Below, in pieces: positions 7,579 to 10,226 of a stretch of 16,785 bases of DNA. The notes beneath the pieces were generated by a model that saw only the letters and a list, made by a program, of their open reading frames with translations, was not told the DNA's origin and did not search any database. This stretch comes from a virus. The stretch lies in UHGV virus genome UHGV-0061980; one strand, given 5' to 3'. Each line of letters starts with the position of its first letter. Within the stretch, counting starts at the first letter, position 1. A program made the position numbers and the translations under genes.

Positions 7579-8229
7579 ATGAAAACTCAATTGATGGGAG
7601 AGCGCATTCGCGCTCGGAGAAAAGAACTCAAGATCAGGCAGGCCGCACTTGGAAAGATGGTCGGCGTGTCTAATGTTGCCATATCTCAGTGGGAACGCTC
7701 TGAGACAGAGCCAAATGGAGAGAATCTTCTCGCCCTGGCTAATGCGTTGAAGTGTTCCCCTGACTATCTGATGAAAGGAGAGGAAAGTCTTTCAAACATT
7801 GCCTATCACAGTAGGCATGATCCAAGAGGGTCATACCCTCTGATTAGCTGGGTGAGCGCAGGATGCTGGATGGAAGCTGTAGAACCATATCATAAGCGTG
7901 CAATAGATAACTGGTACGATACAACCGTAGACTGTTCAGAAGATTCGTTTTGGTTGGACGTGAAGGGAGACTCAATGACGGCTCCGGCCGGTCTCAGTAT
8001 CCCTGAAGGAATGATAATACTCGTCGATCCTGAAGTAGAGCCGCGTAACGGGAAACTGGTAGTTGCAAAGCTCGAAGGAGAAAACGAGGCAACTTTCAAG
8101 AAGTTAGTTATTGATGCAGGCAGGAAGTTTCTAAAACCACTTAACCCACAATATCCGATGATCGAGATCAACGGAAACTGCAAAATCATCGGCGTAGTTG
8201 TCGATGCAAAACTAGCAAACCTTCCATAA
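7579..8229 (+). CDS. c2: Prophage repressor, P22 c2-type (LexA-like S24 peptidase C-terminal domain), 216 aa
   Basis: The translation is nearly identical to the P22 C2 repressor as recalled (QLMGERIRARRK.LKIRQAALGKMVGVSNVAISQWERSETEPNGENLLAL...). HTH N-terminal domain; autocleavage elements GDSM and the downstream Lys are present. Confidence 0.95.
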   Translation: MKTQLMGERIRARRKELKIRQAALGKMVGVSNVAISQWERSETEPNGENLLALANALKCSPDYLMKGEESLSNIAYHSRHDPRGSYPLISWVSAGCWMEAVEPYHKRAIDNWYDTTVDCSEDSFWLDVKGDSMTAPAGLSIPEGMIILVDPEVEPRNGKLVVAKLEGENEATFKKLVIDAGRKFLKPLNPQYPMIEINGNCKIIGVVVDAKLANLP

Positions 8230-8296: not shown

Positions 8297-8350
8297 ATTT
8301 AAGTTTTCTTCAAAAATACTCTTGACCATTAATTAAAGAGATCTTAAATT
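8297..8350 (+). promoter_or_regulatory. Left operator / pL region: operator palindromes at 8297-8314 and 8332-8349; pL -35 TTGACC (8322-8327), 17-bp spacer, -10 TAAATT (8345-8350)
   Basis: AATTAAAGAGATCTTAAATT closely matches the OR site AATTAAAGAACACTTAAATT. The operator overlaps the -10, and the promoter points at N. Confidence 0.7.
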
Positions 8351-8396: not shown

Positions 8397-8437
8397 GCTC
8401 TTTAACATTGATGGGATTGTCCCGCCGAAATGCGGGA
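8397..8437 (+). promoter_or_regulatory. nutL: boxA GCTCTTTAACA (8397-8407) plus boxB hairpin TCCCGC-CGAAAT-GCGGGA (8420-8437)
   Basis: Same boxA and boxB sequences as nutR, located between pL and N. Confidence 0.6.
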
Positions 8438-8544: not shown

Positions 8545-8844
8545 ATGACAGTAGTCATTACATATCTGGCTGACGATAACGCCAGAAATCGCCGCAGAGC
8601 ACGCAGACAGGCTCAACGTGAACAGGCAATGCAAGAGCAGCGACTGGCGCGAAAAATTGCGCTAAAGCTCTCTGGTTGCGTCAGAGCAGATAAAGCAGCA
8701 TCACTCGGAAGCCTTCGCTGTAAGAAAGCAGAAGAAGTCGAGCATAAACAGAACCGTATTTACTACCGCAAGCCACGCAGTGAAATGGGTGTGACTTGTG
8801 TTGGTCGCCAGAAAATAAAATTAGGCAGCAAACCACTTATTTGA
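8545..8844 (+). CDS. N: Antitermination protein N (phage 21 / lambda-family type), 99 aa
   Basis: Arg-rich N-terminal motif (NARNRRRARRQAQREQ) and a C-terminus RIYYRKPRSEMGVTCVGRQKIKLGSKPLI that resembles lambda N (...GITCSGRQKIKGKSIPLI) and phage 21 N as recalled. GGAGG SD 5 nt upstream; downstream of pL/nutL. Confidence 0.85.
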   Translation: MTVVITYLADDNARNRRRARRQAQREQAMQEQRLARKIALKLSGCVRADKAASLGSLRCKKAEEVEHKQNRIYYRKPRSEMGVTCVGRQKIKLGSKPLI

Positions 8845-8855
8845 GAGGAATTAAT

Positions 8856-9479
8856 ATGTCATCAATCCGCTTAACTACGAGAATGAAAGAGGAAATCGCT
8901 CGTAACGCTTTAATTAAGTCTGGGGTTTTCACTGAACTTGAAGAAGTAACAAAGTTAAAGAACCAGCTTGCACTTGACGCCAGAGTTATTGCGTTTGGCG
9001 GTAAAAAGAAAACTGAGGAAGTGGATCAGTTATCATCCAAGTTGGTAGCTATAAGTGAAGAACTTGAAAAGATGGGATGTTCATTTTACTCATACGATGT
9101 TAGTTCTACTTCAATTTATCTGACTGTATCTGGCAGAAGGGTTGGATGGCATTCATATGGGAAAGACGGCAACGGCGAAGATATATTGCTCCCTACTCCG
9201 ACCAAAGATAAATGCATGTTTAGCGCAGAACACGAAATAACAAAAAGGTTTGATGAAATCTGCGCATTGCAACAAAAACTTGAAGCCAAGAAAAAGGATA
9301 TCGAATCAAATGTATGGGCTGCTTTGAACTCAGTCACAACAGTTAAGCGACTTATTGAAGTTTGGCCTGAAAGCAAAGAATTGCTACCAAAAGAAGCAGA
9401 TAAAGCAAGTACAGCACTTCCTGCTTTACGGGTAGAAGATTTGAATAAGATGATTGGACTTCCTTCCGAGGCCGCATAG
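8856..9479 (+). CDS. Hypothetical protein, 207 aa, first gene of a low-GC insert after N; function unknown
   Basis: ATG at 8856 preceded by GAGGAA; the start MSSIRLTTRMKEEI lies 20 codons inside the listed ORF, which otherwise overlaps N. About 38% G+C by manual count on the first 120 nt versus about 50% in N. No transmembrane-like hydrophobic stretch; no family recognised. Confidence 0.6.
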   Translation: MSSIRLTTRMKEEIARNALIKSGVFTELEEVTKLKNQLALDARVIAFGGKKKTEEVDQLSSKLVAISEELEKMGCSFYSYDVSSTSIYLTVSGRRVGWHSYGKDGNGEDILLPTPTKDKCMFSAEHEITKRFDEICALQQKLEAKKKDIESNVWAALNSVTTVKRLIEVWPESKELLPKEADKASTALPALRVEDLNKMIGLPSEAA

Positions 9480-9494
9480 TCGGCCTTTATTTTT
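9469..9494 (+). terminator. Intrinsic terminator immediately after the 207-aa gene
   Basis: Stem AGGCCG/CGGCCT with a 6-nt loop containing the TAG stop, followed by TTTATTTTT. Confidence 0.6.
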
Positions 9495-9613
9495 GGCACT
9501 AACAACAGAATAAACACTGCACTGTGTATTCATTCCAACGAGTGAATACACGGAGCAATGTCGCTCGTAACTAAACAGGAGCCGACTTGTTCTGATTATT
9601 GGAAATCTTCTTT

Positions 9614-9640
9614 GCCCTCCAGTGTGAGGGCGATTTTTTA
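9614..9640 (+). terminator. Second intrinsic terminator, directly upstream of the 122-aa gene's RBS
   Basis: Stem GCCCTC/GAGGGC with a 6-nt loop, followed by GATTTTTTA. Confidence 0.55.
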
Positions 9641-9659
9641 TCTATGAGGATATGAATAG

Positions 9660-10028
9660 ATGTCAAACATCAAAAAATACATCATTGATTACGACTGGAA
9701 AGCATCAATAGAAATTGAAATTGACCATGACGTAATGACAGAGGAAAAACTTCACCAGATTAATAATTTCTGGTCAGACTCTGAATACCGACTCAATAAA
9801 CACGGCTCTGTATTAAATGCTGTATTAATCATGCTGGCGCAACATGCTCTGCTTATAGCAATTTCAAGCGACTTAAATGCATATGGTGTTGTGTGTGAGT
9901 TCGACTGGAATGATGGAAATGGTCAGGAAGGATGGCCTCCAATGGATGGTAGTGAAGGAATAAGAATTACCGATATCGATACATCAGGAATATTTGATTC
10001 AGATGATATGACTATCAAGGCCGCCTGA
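9660..10028 (+). CDS. Hypothetical strongly acidic protein, 122 aa; function unknown
   Basis: Clean ORF with GAGGA upstream. About 22 Asp/Glu versus about 8 Lys/Arg by manual count. Very AT-rich (about 28% G+C in the first 60 nt by manual count). No family recognised. Confidence 0.6.
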   Translation: MSNIKKYIIDYDWKASIEIEIDHDVMTEEKLHQINNFWSDSEYRLNKHGSVLNAVLIMLAQHALLIAISSDLNAYGVVCEFDWNDGNGQEGWPPMDGSEGIRITDIDTSGIFDSDDMTIKAA

Positions 10029-10100
10029 GCGCGGCGTTACCGCATACCAATTACGCTTCACTCGAGGCGTTTTTCGTTATGTATAAATAAGGAGCACACC

Positions 10101-10226
10101 ATGCAATATGCCATTGCAGGGTGGCCTGTTGCTGGCTGCCCTTCCGAATCTTTACTTGAACGAATCACCAGTAAATTACGTGACGGATGGAAAAGAGTTG
10201 AGGTCTTATTATGCGCAATGAAATAG
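10101..10226 (+). CDS. cIII: CIII (lambda-type FtsH inhibitor), short 41-aa variant (below the ORF-track cutoff)
   Basis: MQYAIAGWPVAGCPSESLLERITSKLRDGWKR matches the lambda CIII N-terminus and central helix as recalled; the C-terminus diverges and is shorter. Strong SD AAGGAG upstream. Confidence 0.8.
   Translation: MQYAIAGWPVAGCPSESLLERITSKLRDGWKRVEVLLCAMK

Follow-up and report, generated by a model that had tools for sequence, protein, structure and literature searches.

Expression of the delayed-early genes in the leftward (pL) operon of phage lambda, which are ea10, cIII, kil and the recombination genes, depends on read-through of the terminators tL2a and tL2b. Such N-dependent read-through is standard biology of the pL operon, with polymerase stopping at tL2a without N and passing it with N. 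Enterobacterial hosts themselves make a second type of RNA relevant here, the Hfq-dependent small RNAs (sRNAs) processed from the 3' untranslated regions of mRNAs, with CpxQ and SroC as examples. The two themes meet in lambda, in an sRNA found between ral and ea10 that was named LPR1 or PreS and whose 3' end is the terminator tL2a (Silverman et al., bioRxiv 10.1101/2024.10.31.621285). Northern blots detect LPR1 as bands of 88 nt and 68 nt that are enriched by Hfq, and it is expressed in the lytic cycle only, being absent in lysogens. PreS activates translation of dnaN and represses alaS, as confirmed with compensatory mutants; it raises host DnaN and phage DNA replication, and deletion of its seed with the terminator left intact lowers phage yield (bioRxiv 10.1101/2024.10.31.621285). 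The final version of this work is cited as Mol Cell 2025;85:4678 in PMC13502914.

Other sRNAs of lambdoid prophages in pathogenic E. coli, including AgvB, AsxR, the Pas sRNAs, StxS and HnrS, are likewise Hfq-associated, short and terminator-ended; AgvB, AsxR and StxS are placed in the late PR' region, unlike PreS. AgvB/AsxR, the Pas sRNAs and HnrS were considered and set aside as models for the locus described here. The CA-rich stretch at 9499-9517 resembled the GcvB-target mimic of the AgvB/AsxR anti-sRNAs, but these RNAs belong to the PR' moron region, and the Rfam models for AgvB, AsxR, Esr41 and STnc100 have no match in the window, by which we mean the whole 16,785-nt stretch of virus genome UHGV-0061980 that was analyzed. 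PasA, PasC and PasD of EPEC are located near lysis and Q genes and PasB among structural-protein genes, and HnrS is a different, 66-nt multicopy sRNA.

By its sequence, the 180-base gap between the 207-aa and 122-aa genes of the window is a near-exact copy of the lambda ral-ea10 spacer. We conclude with high confidence that this stretch of the leftward early operon corresponds to the ral-ea10 spacer of lambdoid phages, holding the Hfq-dependent PreS/LPR1 that ends in tL2a and is presumably cut from pL transcripts. The locus is thus one already known from lambda, tL2a together with the Hfq-bound sRNA PreS (LPR1), and is real but ordinary.

The early operon around the gap

Transcription through the gap likely originates entirely from a putative pL-like promoter found by consensus scan (TTGACC-17-TAAATT, 8322-8350, + strand), which lies between a cI-like repressor gene (7579-8229, Peptidase_S24 and HTH) and an N-like gene. 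A nutL-like site read by eye follows at 8397-8437 on the + strand, with a boxA-like GCTCTTTAACA at 8397-8407 and a boxB-like hairpin, TCCCGC-CGAAAT-GCGGGA, at 8420-8437. The N-like antiterminator gene (8545-8844, + strand) encodes 99 aa with an arginine-rich N terminus, NARNRRRARRQAQ; its match to Pfam N_peptide is weak (E 8.7e-4, below cutoff), and homologues are annotated as N in CUS-3 and N7. The gene order continues with a 207-aa Nmad5-family gene (8856-9479, + strand; Pfam Nmad5, E 1.2e-71), PreS, an ea10 homologue of 122 aa (9660-10028, + strand; Pfam DUF2528, E 1.8e-47) and cIII, the start of which is overlapped by the cIII thermoregulator element (10088-10146, + strand; Rfam RF01804, 88.5 bits, E 7.9e-21). 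A preliminary description of this DNA regarded both genes bordering the gap as inserts. This holds for the Nmad5 gene, which is foreign to lambda, sits where lambda has sieB, orf28 and ral, and is the only true insert relative to lambda. The 122-aa gene, in contrast, is no insert but lambda ea10, found at the site that it normally occupies.

The two intrinsic terminators first placed at the ends of the gap were both confirmed. The first, at 9468-9494 on the + strand, consists of the hairpin GAGGCCG-CATAGT-CGGCCTT followed by TATTTTT; its stem (9468-9474/9481-9487) has 7 pairs, 5 of them G-C, its loop contains the TAG stop codon of the 207-aa gene, and its T-rich tail extends to 9494. With a minimum free energy (MFE) of about -11 kcal/mol and a z of -2.1 (6 of 200 shuffles fold equally well), terminator 1 is real, yet only moderately unusual. 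The strength of this hairpin differs between phages: it is much better here (-11 to -12 kcal/mol) than in lambda, where the equivalent reaches -6 kcal/mol and is no better than shuffles. Lambda and the window share a mosaic junction made up of the 3' arm and the T tract of this hairpin. As the first intrinsic-terminator-like site past pL on the + strand, it probably acts as the first N-dependent barrier.

The second terminator (9612-9639, + strand) has an 8-pair stem (9612-9619/9626-9633) followed by six T residues at 9634-9639, and stands 20 nt before the ATG of the 122-aa gene at 9660. It folds at -12.9 kcal/mol (z -4.1, none of 200 shuffles as good), maps to lambda 33930-33925 and carries the label tL2a in the GenBank records of O276 and Sf6, the name also given to the LPR1 terminator by Silverman et al. 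(bioRxiv 10.1101/2024.10.31.621285). It forms the 3' end of PreS and presumably its Hfq-binding module. Beyond ea10, a third terminator-like hairpin (10053-10075, + strand; -9.2 kcal/mol, z -3.6) maps to about 33494 of lambda and is one that we take to be tL2b on the lambda map. The terminator-like pattern is frequent in the window, with 25 matches against 17.3 +/- 4.1 in shuffles, so the pattern alone is weak evidence, and it is homology and literature that carry the identification.

The preliminary description also proposed that the 122-aa gene is reached only by N-modified read-through or from an undetected promoter, a gating of the kind seen for kil. Dependence on N is supported in general terms by the pL-like, nutL-like and N-like elements upstream and by a consensus scan that found no sigma-70-like promoter at 9496-9613. 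A special, kil-like gating of this gene is not: tL2a and tL2b control the delayed-early part of the pL operon as a whole, and not just ea10.

PreS in the ral-ea10 spacer

Sequence comparison aligned window 9476-10193 with lambda 34087-33371 at 98.2% identity, with the homology starting at window 9476-9484 and with no differences at all across 9503-9643. Within this region, the 88 nt at 9553-9640 (+ strand) are 100% identical to lambda PreS (LPR1). The boundaries of PreS were taken from the cloning, in-vitro-transcription and deletion primers in Table S5 of Silverman et al. (bioRxiv 10.1101/2024.10.31.621285), whose LPR1 construct, GAGCAATGTCGCTCGTAACT ... CCTCCAGTGTGAGGGCGATTTTTTA, is matched in full by the window; the 5' end at G9553 rests on the authors' construct boundaries and northern sizes, and the processed form of about 68 nt would begin near 9573. 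Given this identity, the preliminary description was right in its alternative reading of a small RNA with its end at the second terminator, except that the RNA does not fill the segment between both terminators, as its start is at 9553, the 3' foot of a hairpin. That description had called for folding of 9460-9650, and all three features are indeed present there and fold well, with a z of -5.4 for the whole segment.

The seed region of PreS, UUGUUCUGAUUAUUGGAAAUCUUCUUU, occupies 9587-9613 on the + strand, so placed that the published mutants M1 and M2 fall at 9592-9594 and 9602-9604 and the published 18-nt seed deletion at about 9588-9605. Paired with E. coli MG1655 dnaN at -47..-11, the seed gives a duplex of -29.5 kcal/mol, compared with -14.0 +/- 3.1 for shuffled seeds (none of 1000 as good), and the M1 mutation weakens it to -18.1 kcal/mol. 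These values come from a seed-only test, used instead of RNAduplex on full-length PreS and dnaN, which is meaningless because it ignores intramolecular structure. Processing to 68 nt was also considered as a way of exposing the seed, but the predicted accessibility of seed block 1 rises only from 0.28 to 0.41, too small a gain to support this.

The window has the same 88-nt sequence as the lambda PreS locus, at the same site of the pL operon immediately before ea10, and the same terminator, seed and upstream hairpin; what differs is the upstream neighbor, an Nmad5-family gene in place of ral, orf28 and sieB, and the immunity region and N, which are here of the phage-21/CUS-3 type. PreS resembles CpxQ- and SroC-type sRNAs in sharing a terminator with the upstream transcription unit, in having no recognizable promoter of its own and in giving rise to a shorter processed form. 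It differs from them in that its parent transcript is that of an antiterminated phage operon, in which polymerase normally continues past the terminator of the sRNA, and in that a hairpin of conserved structure abuts its 5' end. Rfam 15 holds no family for PreS. Covariance models run over 9300-9800 gave no match at threshold, the best being RyhB, which scored 18.3 bits where the threshold is 55 and matched the terminator only, and permissive thresholds yielded chance-level matches only (mir-137 on the hairpin, RyhB on the terminator).

A mosaic block and its hairpin

The sequence occurs in 330 phage records, Stx-converting phages among them, and in about 41% (2239 of 5426) of the complete E. 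coli genomes. Hairpin, PreS and tL2a move as a single mosaic block among lambdoid phages. In 120 sampled records, homology breaks off at 9469-9530 on the left side and at 9639-9653 on the right side, or else exactly at 9553, the junction seen in EC05 and GN25; no breakpoint lies within 9554-9638, save for a 36-base remnant in H232 with homology to 9509-9544. The seed is invariant or nearly so among phages with unrelated flanking genes.

The left edge of the minimal conserved block is the hairpin (9519-9556, + strand), which as RNA has a 14-bp stem (9522-9535/9540-9553) with the loop CAAC and is extended to 9519-9556 by two more pairs across an A.A mismatch, with GCAC/GAGC as the basal pairs. 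Its MFE is -20.2 kcal/mol (z -6.7, none of 200 shuffles as good), and no inverted repeat in the DNA of the whole window is longer, its 22-nt arms (9514-9535/9540-9561) being 82% complementary. The inverted repeat at 9524-9551 of the preliminary description is therefore present, but its size of 9 bp was an understatement of what is really a 14-bp RNA hairpin at 9522-9553. The last four bases of the hairpin are the first four of PreS. In phage HK022/O276, the left arm carries an IS903 element.

Salmonella phages of the P22/ST104 type carry a diverged PreS-like element that is 80-84% identical over window 9553-9610. In the same position as PreS, it follows the accessory genes that come after the N homologue and precedes gene 17 and c3; it also shares the first 19 nt and, save for two changes, the first seed block, and has a hairpin abutting its +1; unlike PreS, its second seed block, its terminator and the sequence of its upstream hairpin are all different. 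The element is without a name in the literature that we found.

Hairpins of three unrelated sequences, the lambda, P22 and ST104 types, are found at this one place, and PreS +1 is where each of them ends. The basal GCAC/GAGC pairs are kept in all three, and the five base-pair differences between the P22 and ST104 types are all fully compensated, the pairs having been read from individual folds since the MAFFT alignment had misplaced those stems by one column. All copies seen of the lambda-type hairpin have the same sequence, which leaves no room for a covariation signal within that type. A scan of species genomes with the ea10 protein, meant to supply diverse loci, yielded little besides lambda DNA of 100% identity in unrelated taxa, and these loci, being spike-in or marker contamination, were useless for covariation.

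The block has been annotated before in another capacity. The records of Sf6 and HK542 label exactly this DNA as "bsq4; boundary sequence" (Sf6 bsq4 corresponds to window 9519-9631), and records of this group, CUS-3-type ones included, treat it as a recombination junction without an RNA product. Conservation might then reflect mainly a homologous-recombination linker for module exchange among lambdoid phages and not RNA function, consistent with the clustering of breakpoints at both block edges and the many different flanking genes. However, a linker needs no structure, yet the hairpin has been kept through complete sequence replacement with compensatory changes, the complementarity of the seed to dnaN is far above chance, and seed deletion lowers lambda yield; we consider it unlikely that linkage is the main cause. 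The two roles are compatible, as recombination may exploit sequence conserved for RNA function.

The main reading of the preliminary description was that the gap holds tandem terminators only, which make ea10 and later genes N-dependent, with an incidental inverted repeat and no functional RNA. Both hairpins with their T tracts are real, tL2a is a named lambda termination site, and a pL-nutL-N-like arrangement lies upstream. Terminators by themselves leave unexplained the conservation of the 60 nt upstream of the tL2a stem and a seed that stays nearly constant whatever its flanks, and the 88 nt ending at tL2a are a characterized Hfq-bound sRNA with validated targets, for which a seed-deletion phenotype with the terminator intact is already reported in lambda. 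That the gap is purely a termination region is very unlikely.

We give equally little credence to PreS being an independent gene, with a promoter of its own overlapping the hairpin, G9553 as the transcription start and the palindrome as an operator in the DNA to which a protein of the phage or the host binds. The coincidence of the 5' end with a sharp homology boundary, exactly 9553 in EC05 and GN25, would suit such a gene, and an operator for a dimeric protein would also present a palindrome with mirrored changes. Against this, 9496-9613 has no sigma-70-like -10/-35 pair, the best hexamers by eye matching 6 of 12 positions; the supposed -10/-35 positions are occupied by three unrelated sequences; LPR1 is not expressed in lysogens and comes on when pL is derepressed; and the G.U pairs of the stems (here U9523.G9552 and U9533.G9542) pair only as + strand RNA, not in a DNA palindrome. 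PreS is thus presumably made from pL and not from its own promoter. It is scarcely credible that the segment encodes, instead of or besides a regulatory RNA, the 29-aa peptide MSLVTKQEPTCSDYWKSSLPSSVRAIFYL (ATG at 9558 to TGA at 9645-9647): the ORF exists and a gene caller annotated it in phage phi367, but its only Shine-Dalgarno-like GGAG (9552-9555) is separated from the ATG by just 2 nt and hidden in the base of the hairpin, it crosses the terminator stem, its 3' end shifts with T-run indels among phages, and the P22-type homologues change sequence regardless of frame.

Three hairpin versions at one place, each ending at PreS +1, point to an RNA processing determinant, a role that we infer from sequence comparison, and the hairpin probably directs formation of the PreS 5' end. 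RNase III is one candidate, for which roughly two turns of double-stranded RNA with the cleavage site inside the helix are expected. The lambda-type helix spans 17 positions (16 pairs and the A.A mismatch), or 22 at 82% if extended, while the P22 and ST104 helices have only 11 bp and 3 basal pairs; in every type, PreS +1 is part of a base pair, at position 13-14 of the helix when counted from the loop. A literature search found neither an RNase III or processing site near tL2 nor the sequence itself.

PreS production and early-operon sRNAs

After induction, transcription from pL (about 8322-8350) would run through nutL, N and the Nmad5 gene. Unmodified polymerase would stop at terminator 1, with any leak stopping at tL2a and the next terminator, and N-modified polymerase would pass all terminators, allowing expression of ea10, cIII, kil and the recombination genes. 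PreS would be cut out of pL transcripts, with a 5' end, G9553, at the base of the stable upstream hairpin and a 3' end, formed by the tL2a hairpin and U tail, that would bind Hfq. N-modified polymerase should ignore tL2a, and under antitermination the 3' end could be generated either by partial termination or by trimming back to the hairpin. The single-stranded seed at 9587-9613 would then pair with mRNA at the dnaA-dnaN junction and open the dnaN ribosome-binding site, with more beta clamp and in turn more phage DNA replication as the expected outcome; the same seed would also repress alaS.

More tentatively, and with somewhat less than even confidence, we suggest that hairpin, PreS and tL2a are a self-contained mobile "sRNA cassette" in which the hairpin is an obligatory processing determinant, and that the hairpin versions and the P22-type sRNA define a wider sRNA family with different seeds. 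A double-strand-specific or structure-guided nuclease would cut at the base of the helix, releasing PreS from the antiterminated transcript of pL, and the 3' end of the upstream mRNA would at once be capped by the hairpin. The cassette would be a new proposal only if Mol Cell 2025;85:4678 gives no account of PreS biogenesis.

The finding matters mainly for annotation, since records list nothing at this position, or only "terminator" or "boundary sequence", and Rfam 15 offers no model. Recognition of the block as PreS implies that many prophages, those of Shiga-toxin phages included, carry an sRNA that boosts host replication. The comparison makes one modest addition, namely that hairpin, PreS and tL2a form one mosaic block with three hairpin versions abutting PreS +1, and provides a testable handle on how an sRNA is produced from an operon whose polymerase ignores terminators. 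P22-type phages carry a diverged relative of PreS with a different second seed block, and, should the cassette proposal hold, the three interchangeable hairpins together with this sRNA would represent a larger family of sRNAs in the early operons of lambdoid phages, whose members differ in their seeds.

Lambda PreS between an Nmad5-family gene and ea10

A lambdoid prophage makes up the window, and its leftward early operon runs along the + strand. The gene for a LexA-like cI repressor (7579-8229) is followed on that strand by a pL-like promoter (8322-8350), boxA-like and boxB-like elements of a nutL-like site read by eye (8397-8437), an N-like gene (8545-8844) whose product begins with an arginine-rich stretch, a 207-aa Nmad5-family gene (8856-9479; Pfam E 1.2e-71), a 122-aa DUF2528 gene (9660-10028), and the lambda cIII thermoregulator (10088-10146; Rfam, 88.5 bits). 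The immunity region and N resemble those of phage 21, CUS-3, N7, and mEp235. Because positions 9476-10193 match lambda 34087-33371 at 98.2% identity, with 9503-9643 identical in the two, the 122-aa gene is ea10 at its native position and not one of two insert genes, as the preliminary description had it; the Nmad5 gene alone is foreign, standing in place of lambda sieB, orf28, and ral. Homology to lambda stops near 10193, inside a cIII-like ORF (10101-10226) of 41 aa, versus 54 aa in lambda, whose C terminus differs and at whose start the thermoregulator is intact. An antisense ORF of 133 aa (9116-9517, - strand) inside the Nmad5 gene, listed in the HK542 record as hypothetical protein HK542c101, is probably a gene-caller artefact. 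The hairpin following ea10, at 10053-10075, corresponds to lambda ~33494 and is presumably tL2b.

The element in the gap between the Nmad5 gene and ea10 is already known. It was described by Silverman, Nashef, Bruner, Noy, and Melamed (bioRxiv 10.1101/2024.10.31.621285; the published version is cited in PMC13502914 as Mol Cell 2025;85(24):4678), whose RIL-seq during lambda infection yielded an Hfq-enriched RNA, LPR1, renamed PreS, that lies between ral and ea10 with tL2a as its 3' end. In that preprint, northern blots revealed two bands, one of ~88 nt and a stronger, processed one of ~68 nt, seen within 10 min of thermal induction and not in lysogens, and PreS always occupied the sRNA position in chimeras. 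PreS activated a dnaAN-gfp fusion >4-fold and repressed alaS ~2-fold, both verified with compensatory mutants; furthermore, deletion of the seed reduced lambda DNA replication and spontaneous phage yield, the yield defect disappearing in an hfq-deletion host.

The published LPR1, GAGCAATGTCGCTCGTAACT...GAGGGCGATTTTTTA according to the cloning, T7-template, and deletion primers (Table S5 of the preprint), is identical at every base to the 88 nt at 9553-9640. The preliminary description had proposed, as an alternative, a small RNA from the segment between two terminators; its 3' end at the second is borne out, and its start is the foot of a hairpin, not the first terminator. On the window, published mutations M1 and M2 fall at 9592-9594 and 9602-9604, and the seed deletion at ~9588-9605. 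Positions 9583-9613 form a duplex of -29.5 kcal/mol with MG1655 dnaN -47 to -11, a value matched by none of 1000 shuffled seeds (-14.0 +/- 3.1 kcal/mol), and the M1 change reduces it to -18.1 kcal/mol. A 29-codon ORF (9558-9647; MSLVTKQEPTCSDYWKSSLPSSVRAIFYL), also called by PHANOTATE in phage phi367, covers PreS and its terminator; its Shine-Dalgarno site is badly spaced (2 nt) and hidden in the hairpin base. DNA of ea10 and PreS that is 100% identical to lambda also occurs in assemblies of unrelated taxa (related loci L003-L016 and L019-L022), including Pseudoxanthomonas, Enterococcus, Shewanella, Chromatium, Bradyrhizobium, Neobacillus, Kitasatospora, and Paenibacillus; several of the matches lie on low-coverage contigs of about 48.4-48.5 kb, and the apparent source is lambda DNA used as a control or marker that has contaminated public genomes.

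Terminators flanking the element and probable dependence on N

Sequence checks and folding confirmed both terminators and the inverted repeat described at 9460-9650, the full 191-nt segment folding with a z of -5.4. Terminator 1 is a 7-pair hairpin (9468-9474/9481-9487) followed by TATTTTT, with the TAG stop of the 207-aa gene in its loop (-11 kcal/mol, z -2.1; 6 of 200 shuffles equal or better). In terminator 2, six T (9634-9639) come after a hairpin of 8 pairs (9612-9619/9626-9633), and the ATG at 9660 is 20 nt further on (-12.9 kcal/mol, z -4.1; matched by 0 of 200 shuffles). Because terminator-like patterns are not rare in the window (25 matches versus 17.3 +/- 4.1 in shuffles), identification was based on homology. 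Terminator 2 corresponds to lambda 33930-33925, is called tL2a in the PreS preprint, and is so labelled in the O276 and Sf6 GenBank records. The 3' arm and T tract of terminator 1 (GGCCTTTATTTTTGGCA) are common to lambda and many other phages, and its 5' arm is the end of whatever gene stands upstream. The lambda homology junction lies inside terminator 1 (window 9476-9499; lambda locus L001, 1262-1300; HK106 locus L024), and the 5' arm joined to the common 3' arm and T tract comes from Nmad5, ral, or a 366-423-nt ORF, with the stop codon in the loop.

The quality of terminator 1 varies amongst phages. The hairpin is good in the window and CUS-3 (-11 to -12 kcal/mol), better in ral-carrying HK106 (-15 kcal/mol), and eroded in N7 and one Salmonella phage; lambda's own equivalent is weak (-6 kcal/mol, with shuffles doing as well), two base differences from HK106 degrading it. 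HK97-type phages lack terminator 1, and a 471-nt gene separates it from the hairpin in phi367 and in one ST131 prophage, so it is a separate and dispensable element. The inserted gene is HK97 gp45-like (phi367 L031, 1263-1733; E. coli ST131 ZH063 L033, 1304-1774) and divides the gap into two intergenic regions.

In lambda, tL1 follows N, whereas the N-like and Nmad5 genes of the window are 11 nt apart with no terminator-like site between them (8545-8856); this prophage would express N together with a putative nucleotide-modification protein before antitermination. Terminator 1, the first intrinsic-terminator-like site past pL, is probably the first N-dependent barrier, in which case N and the Nmad5 gene would be the only N-independent pL products. 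A need for N-mediated read-through to express ea10 is consistent with the standard lambda picture; the whole delayed-early operon is gated in this way, with ea10 not singled out. Of the preliminary interpretation, the small-RNA alternative and general N-dependence survive, whereas a second insert and a gating peculiar to the 122-aa gene are not supported.

A mosaic block with exchangeable 5' hairpins

Matches to a 261-nt query occur in 330 phage records and in 2239 of the 5426 complete E. coli genomes, where a single genome has as many as 6 copies. Homology edges were located in 60 phage and 60 E. coli records, evenly spaced down the rankings. In these 120 records the left edges fall at 9440 (same Nmad5 gene), 9469, 9476, 9482, 9501, 9509, 9519, 9530, or exactly 9553, and the right edges at 9639-9641, 9653, or further where ea10 is present; none has a junction within 9554-9638, save a 36-base remnant (match H232, homology 9509-9544). 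The minimal common block, 9519-9641, is all the homology that HK97, Stx1a phages, phi367, and one ST131 prophage share with the window. Its upstream neighbour may be ral, Nmad5, an HK97 gp45-like gene, or a 366-423-nt ORF, and its downstream neighbour ea10, cIII, or others; Sf6 and HK542 annotate it as 'bsq4; boundary sequence'. Substitutions concentrate in the terminator loop and just 3' of the stem, the stems and seed being almost invariant.

A 14-bp RNA stem (9522-9535/9540-9553, loop CAAC) has the 9-bp inverted repeat as its core and grows to 9519-9556 by two more pairs past an A.A mismatch (-20.2 kcal/mol, z -6.7; matched by 0 of 200 shuffles). In DNA it is the longest inverted repeat of the 16.8-kb window (22-nt arms, 82% complementarity). 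G9553, the PreS +1, is the final paired base of the stem, and GAGC (PreS nt 1-4) pairs with GCAC at 9519-9522. Three versions of the hairpin occupy this position: the lambda type, CUGUGUAUUCAUUC-CAAC-GAGUGAAUACACGG (14 pairs, -20.2 kcal/mol), the P22 type, UAUAGCAGAUU-UACG-AGUCUGCUAUG (11 pairs, -13.4 kcal/mol), and that of ST104-type Salmonella phages, UAAUGACCAUU-UUAAU-AGUGGUCAUUG (11 pairs, -13.6 kcal/mol), each folding better than nearly all shuffles. The P22 and ST104 stems have a common frame and differ at five base pairs, with both sides changed each time. All types retain the flanking GCAC and GAGC, which places PreS +1 in a pair at the foot of the helix in every case, 13-14 positions away from the loop. 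Furthermore, every stem type contains G.U pairs, which form only in + strand RNA and argue against a DNA operator. Hairpin and sRNA types recombine freely: in the E. coli prophages EC05 and GN25, homology to the window begins exactly at 9553, joining the P22 hairpin to lambda PreS, and ST-29 combines the P22 hairpin with an ST104 body. In HK97 and P22, the hairpin begins a few bases 3' of the upstream gene's stop codon.

A diverged PreS homologue (80-84% identity over window 9553-9610) is present in P22, ST104, and ~85 Salmonella phage records in the corresponding position, upstream of c3 and flanked by ORF67 and gene 17. Its first 19 nt are nearly those of lambda PreS, and seed block 1 reads UCGUUCUGGUU in place of UUGUUCUGAUU, where the A-to-G substitution would leave a G.U pair with the E. 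coli dnaN sequence; the second seed block and the terminator (UGCCGCUC-UAUAU-GGGCGGCA plus UUCUUUUU) differ. This sequence and its own hairpin (P22 locus L035, 901-1010; also L036, L040, L041, and L042) carry no annotation at the site in these Salmonella phage records.

Formation of the PreS ends

The preprint names no PreS promoter and leaves biogenesis undiscussed. We infer that the hairpin is an RNA structure helping to define the PreS 5' end: cleavage might occur at the base of the helix, or the hairpin might cap the upstream mRNA as a nuclease frees PreS. RNase III is one unproven candidate; the lambda-type helix is near two helical turns if the imperfect 22-nt arms are counted, whereas the 11-bp stems of the P22 and ST104 types are short for this enzyme. 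The 3' end poses a real puzzle, because polymerase must pass terminator 1 to make PreS, whereas the terminator at which PreS ends is one that N-modified polymerase is expected to disregard. This end may stem from an unmodified or incompletely modified fraction of polymerase, or may result from trimming back to an Hfq-protected hairpin.

The pattern of hairpin replacement and the P22-type relative add modestly to what is known, and the published paper may or may not already contain them. In HK022 (match H163) and its hybrid O276 (L032, 221-1144), IS903 lies inside the left arm of the hairpin and homology picks up again at 9530, so that the hairpin is destroyed with PreS and tL2a intact, making these two phages a natural test case for the role of the hairpin.
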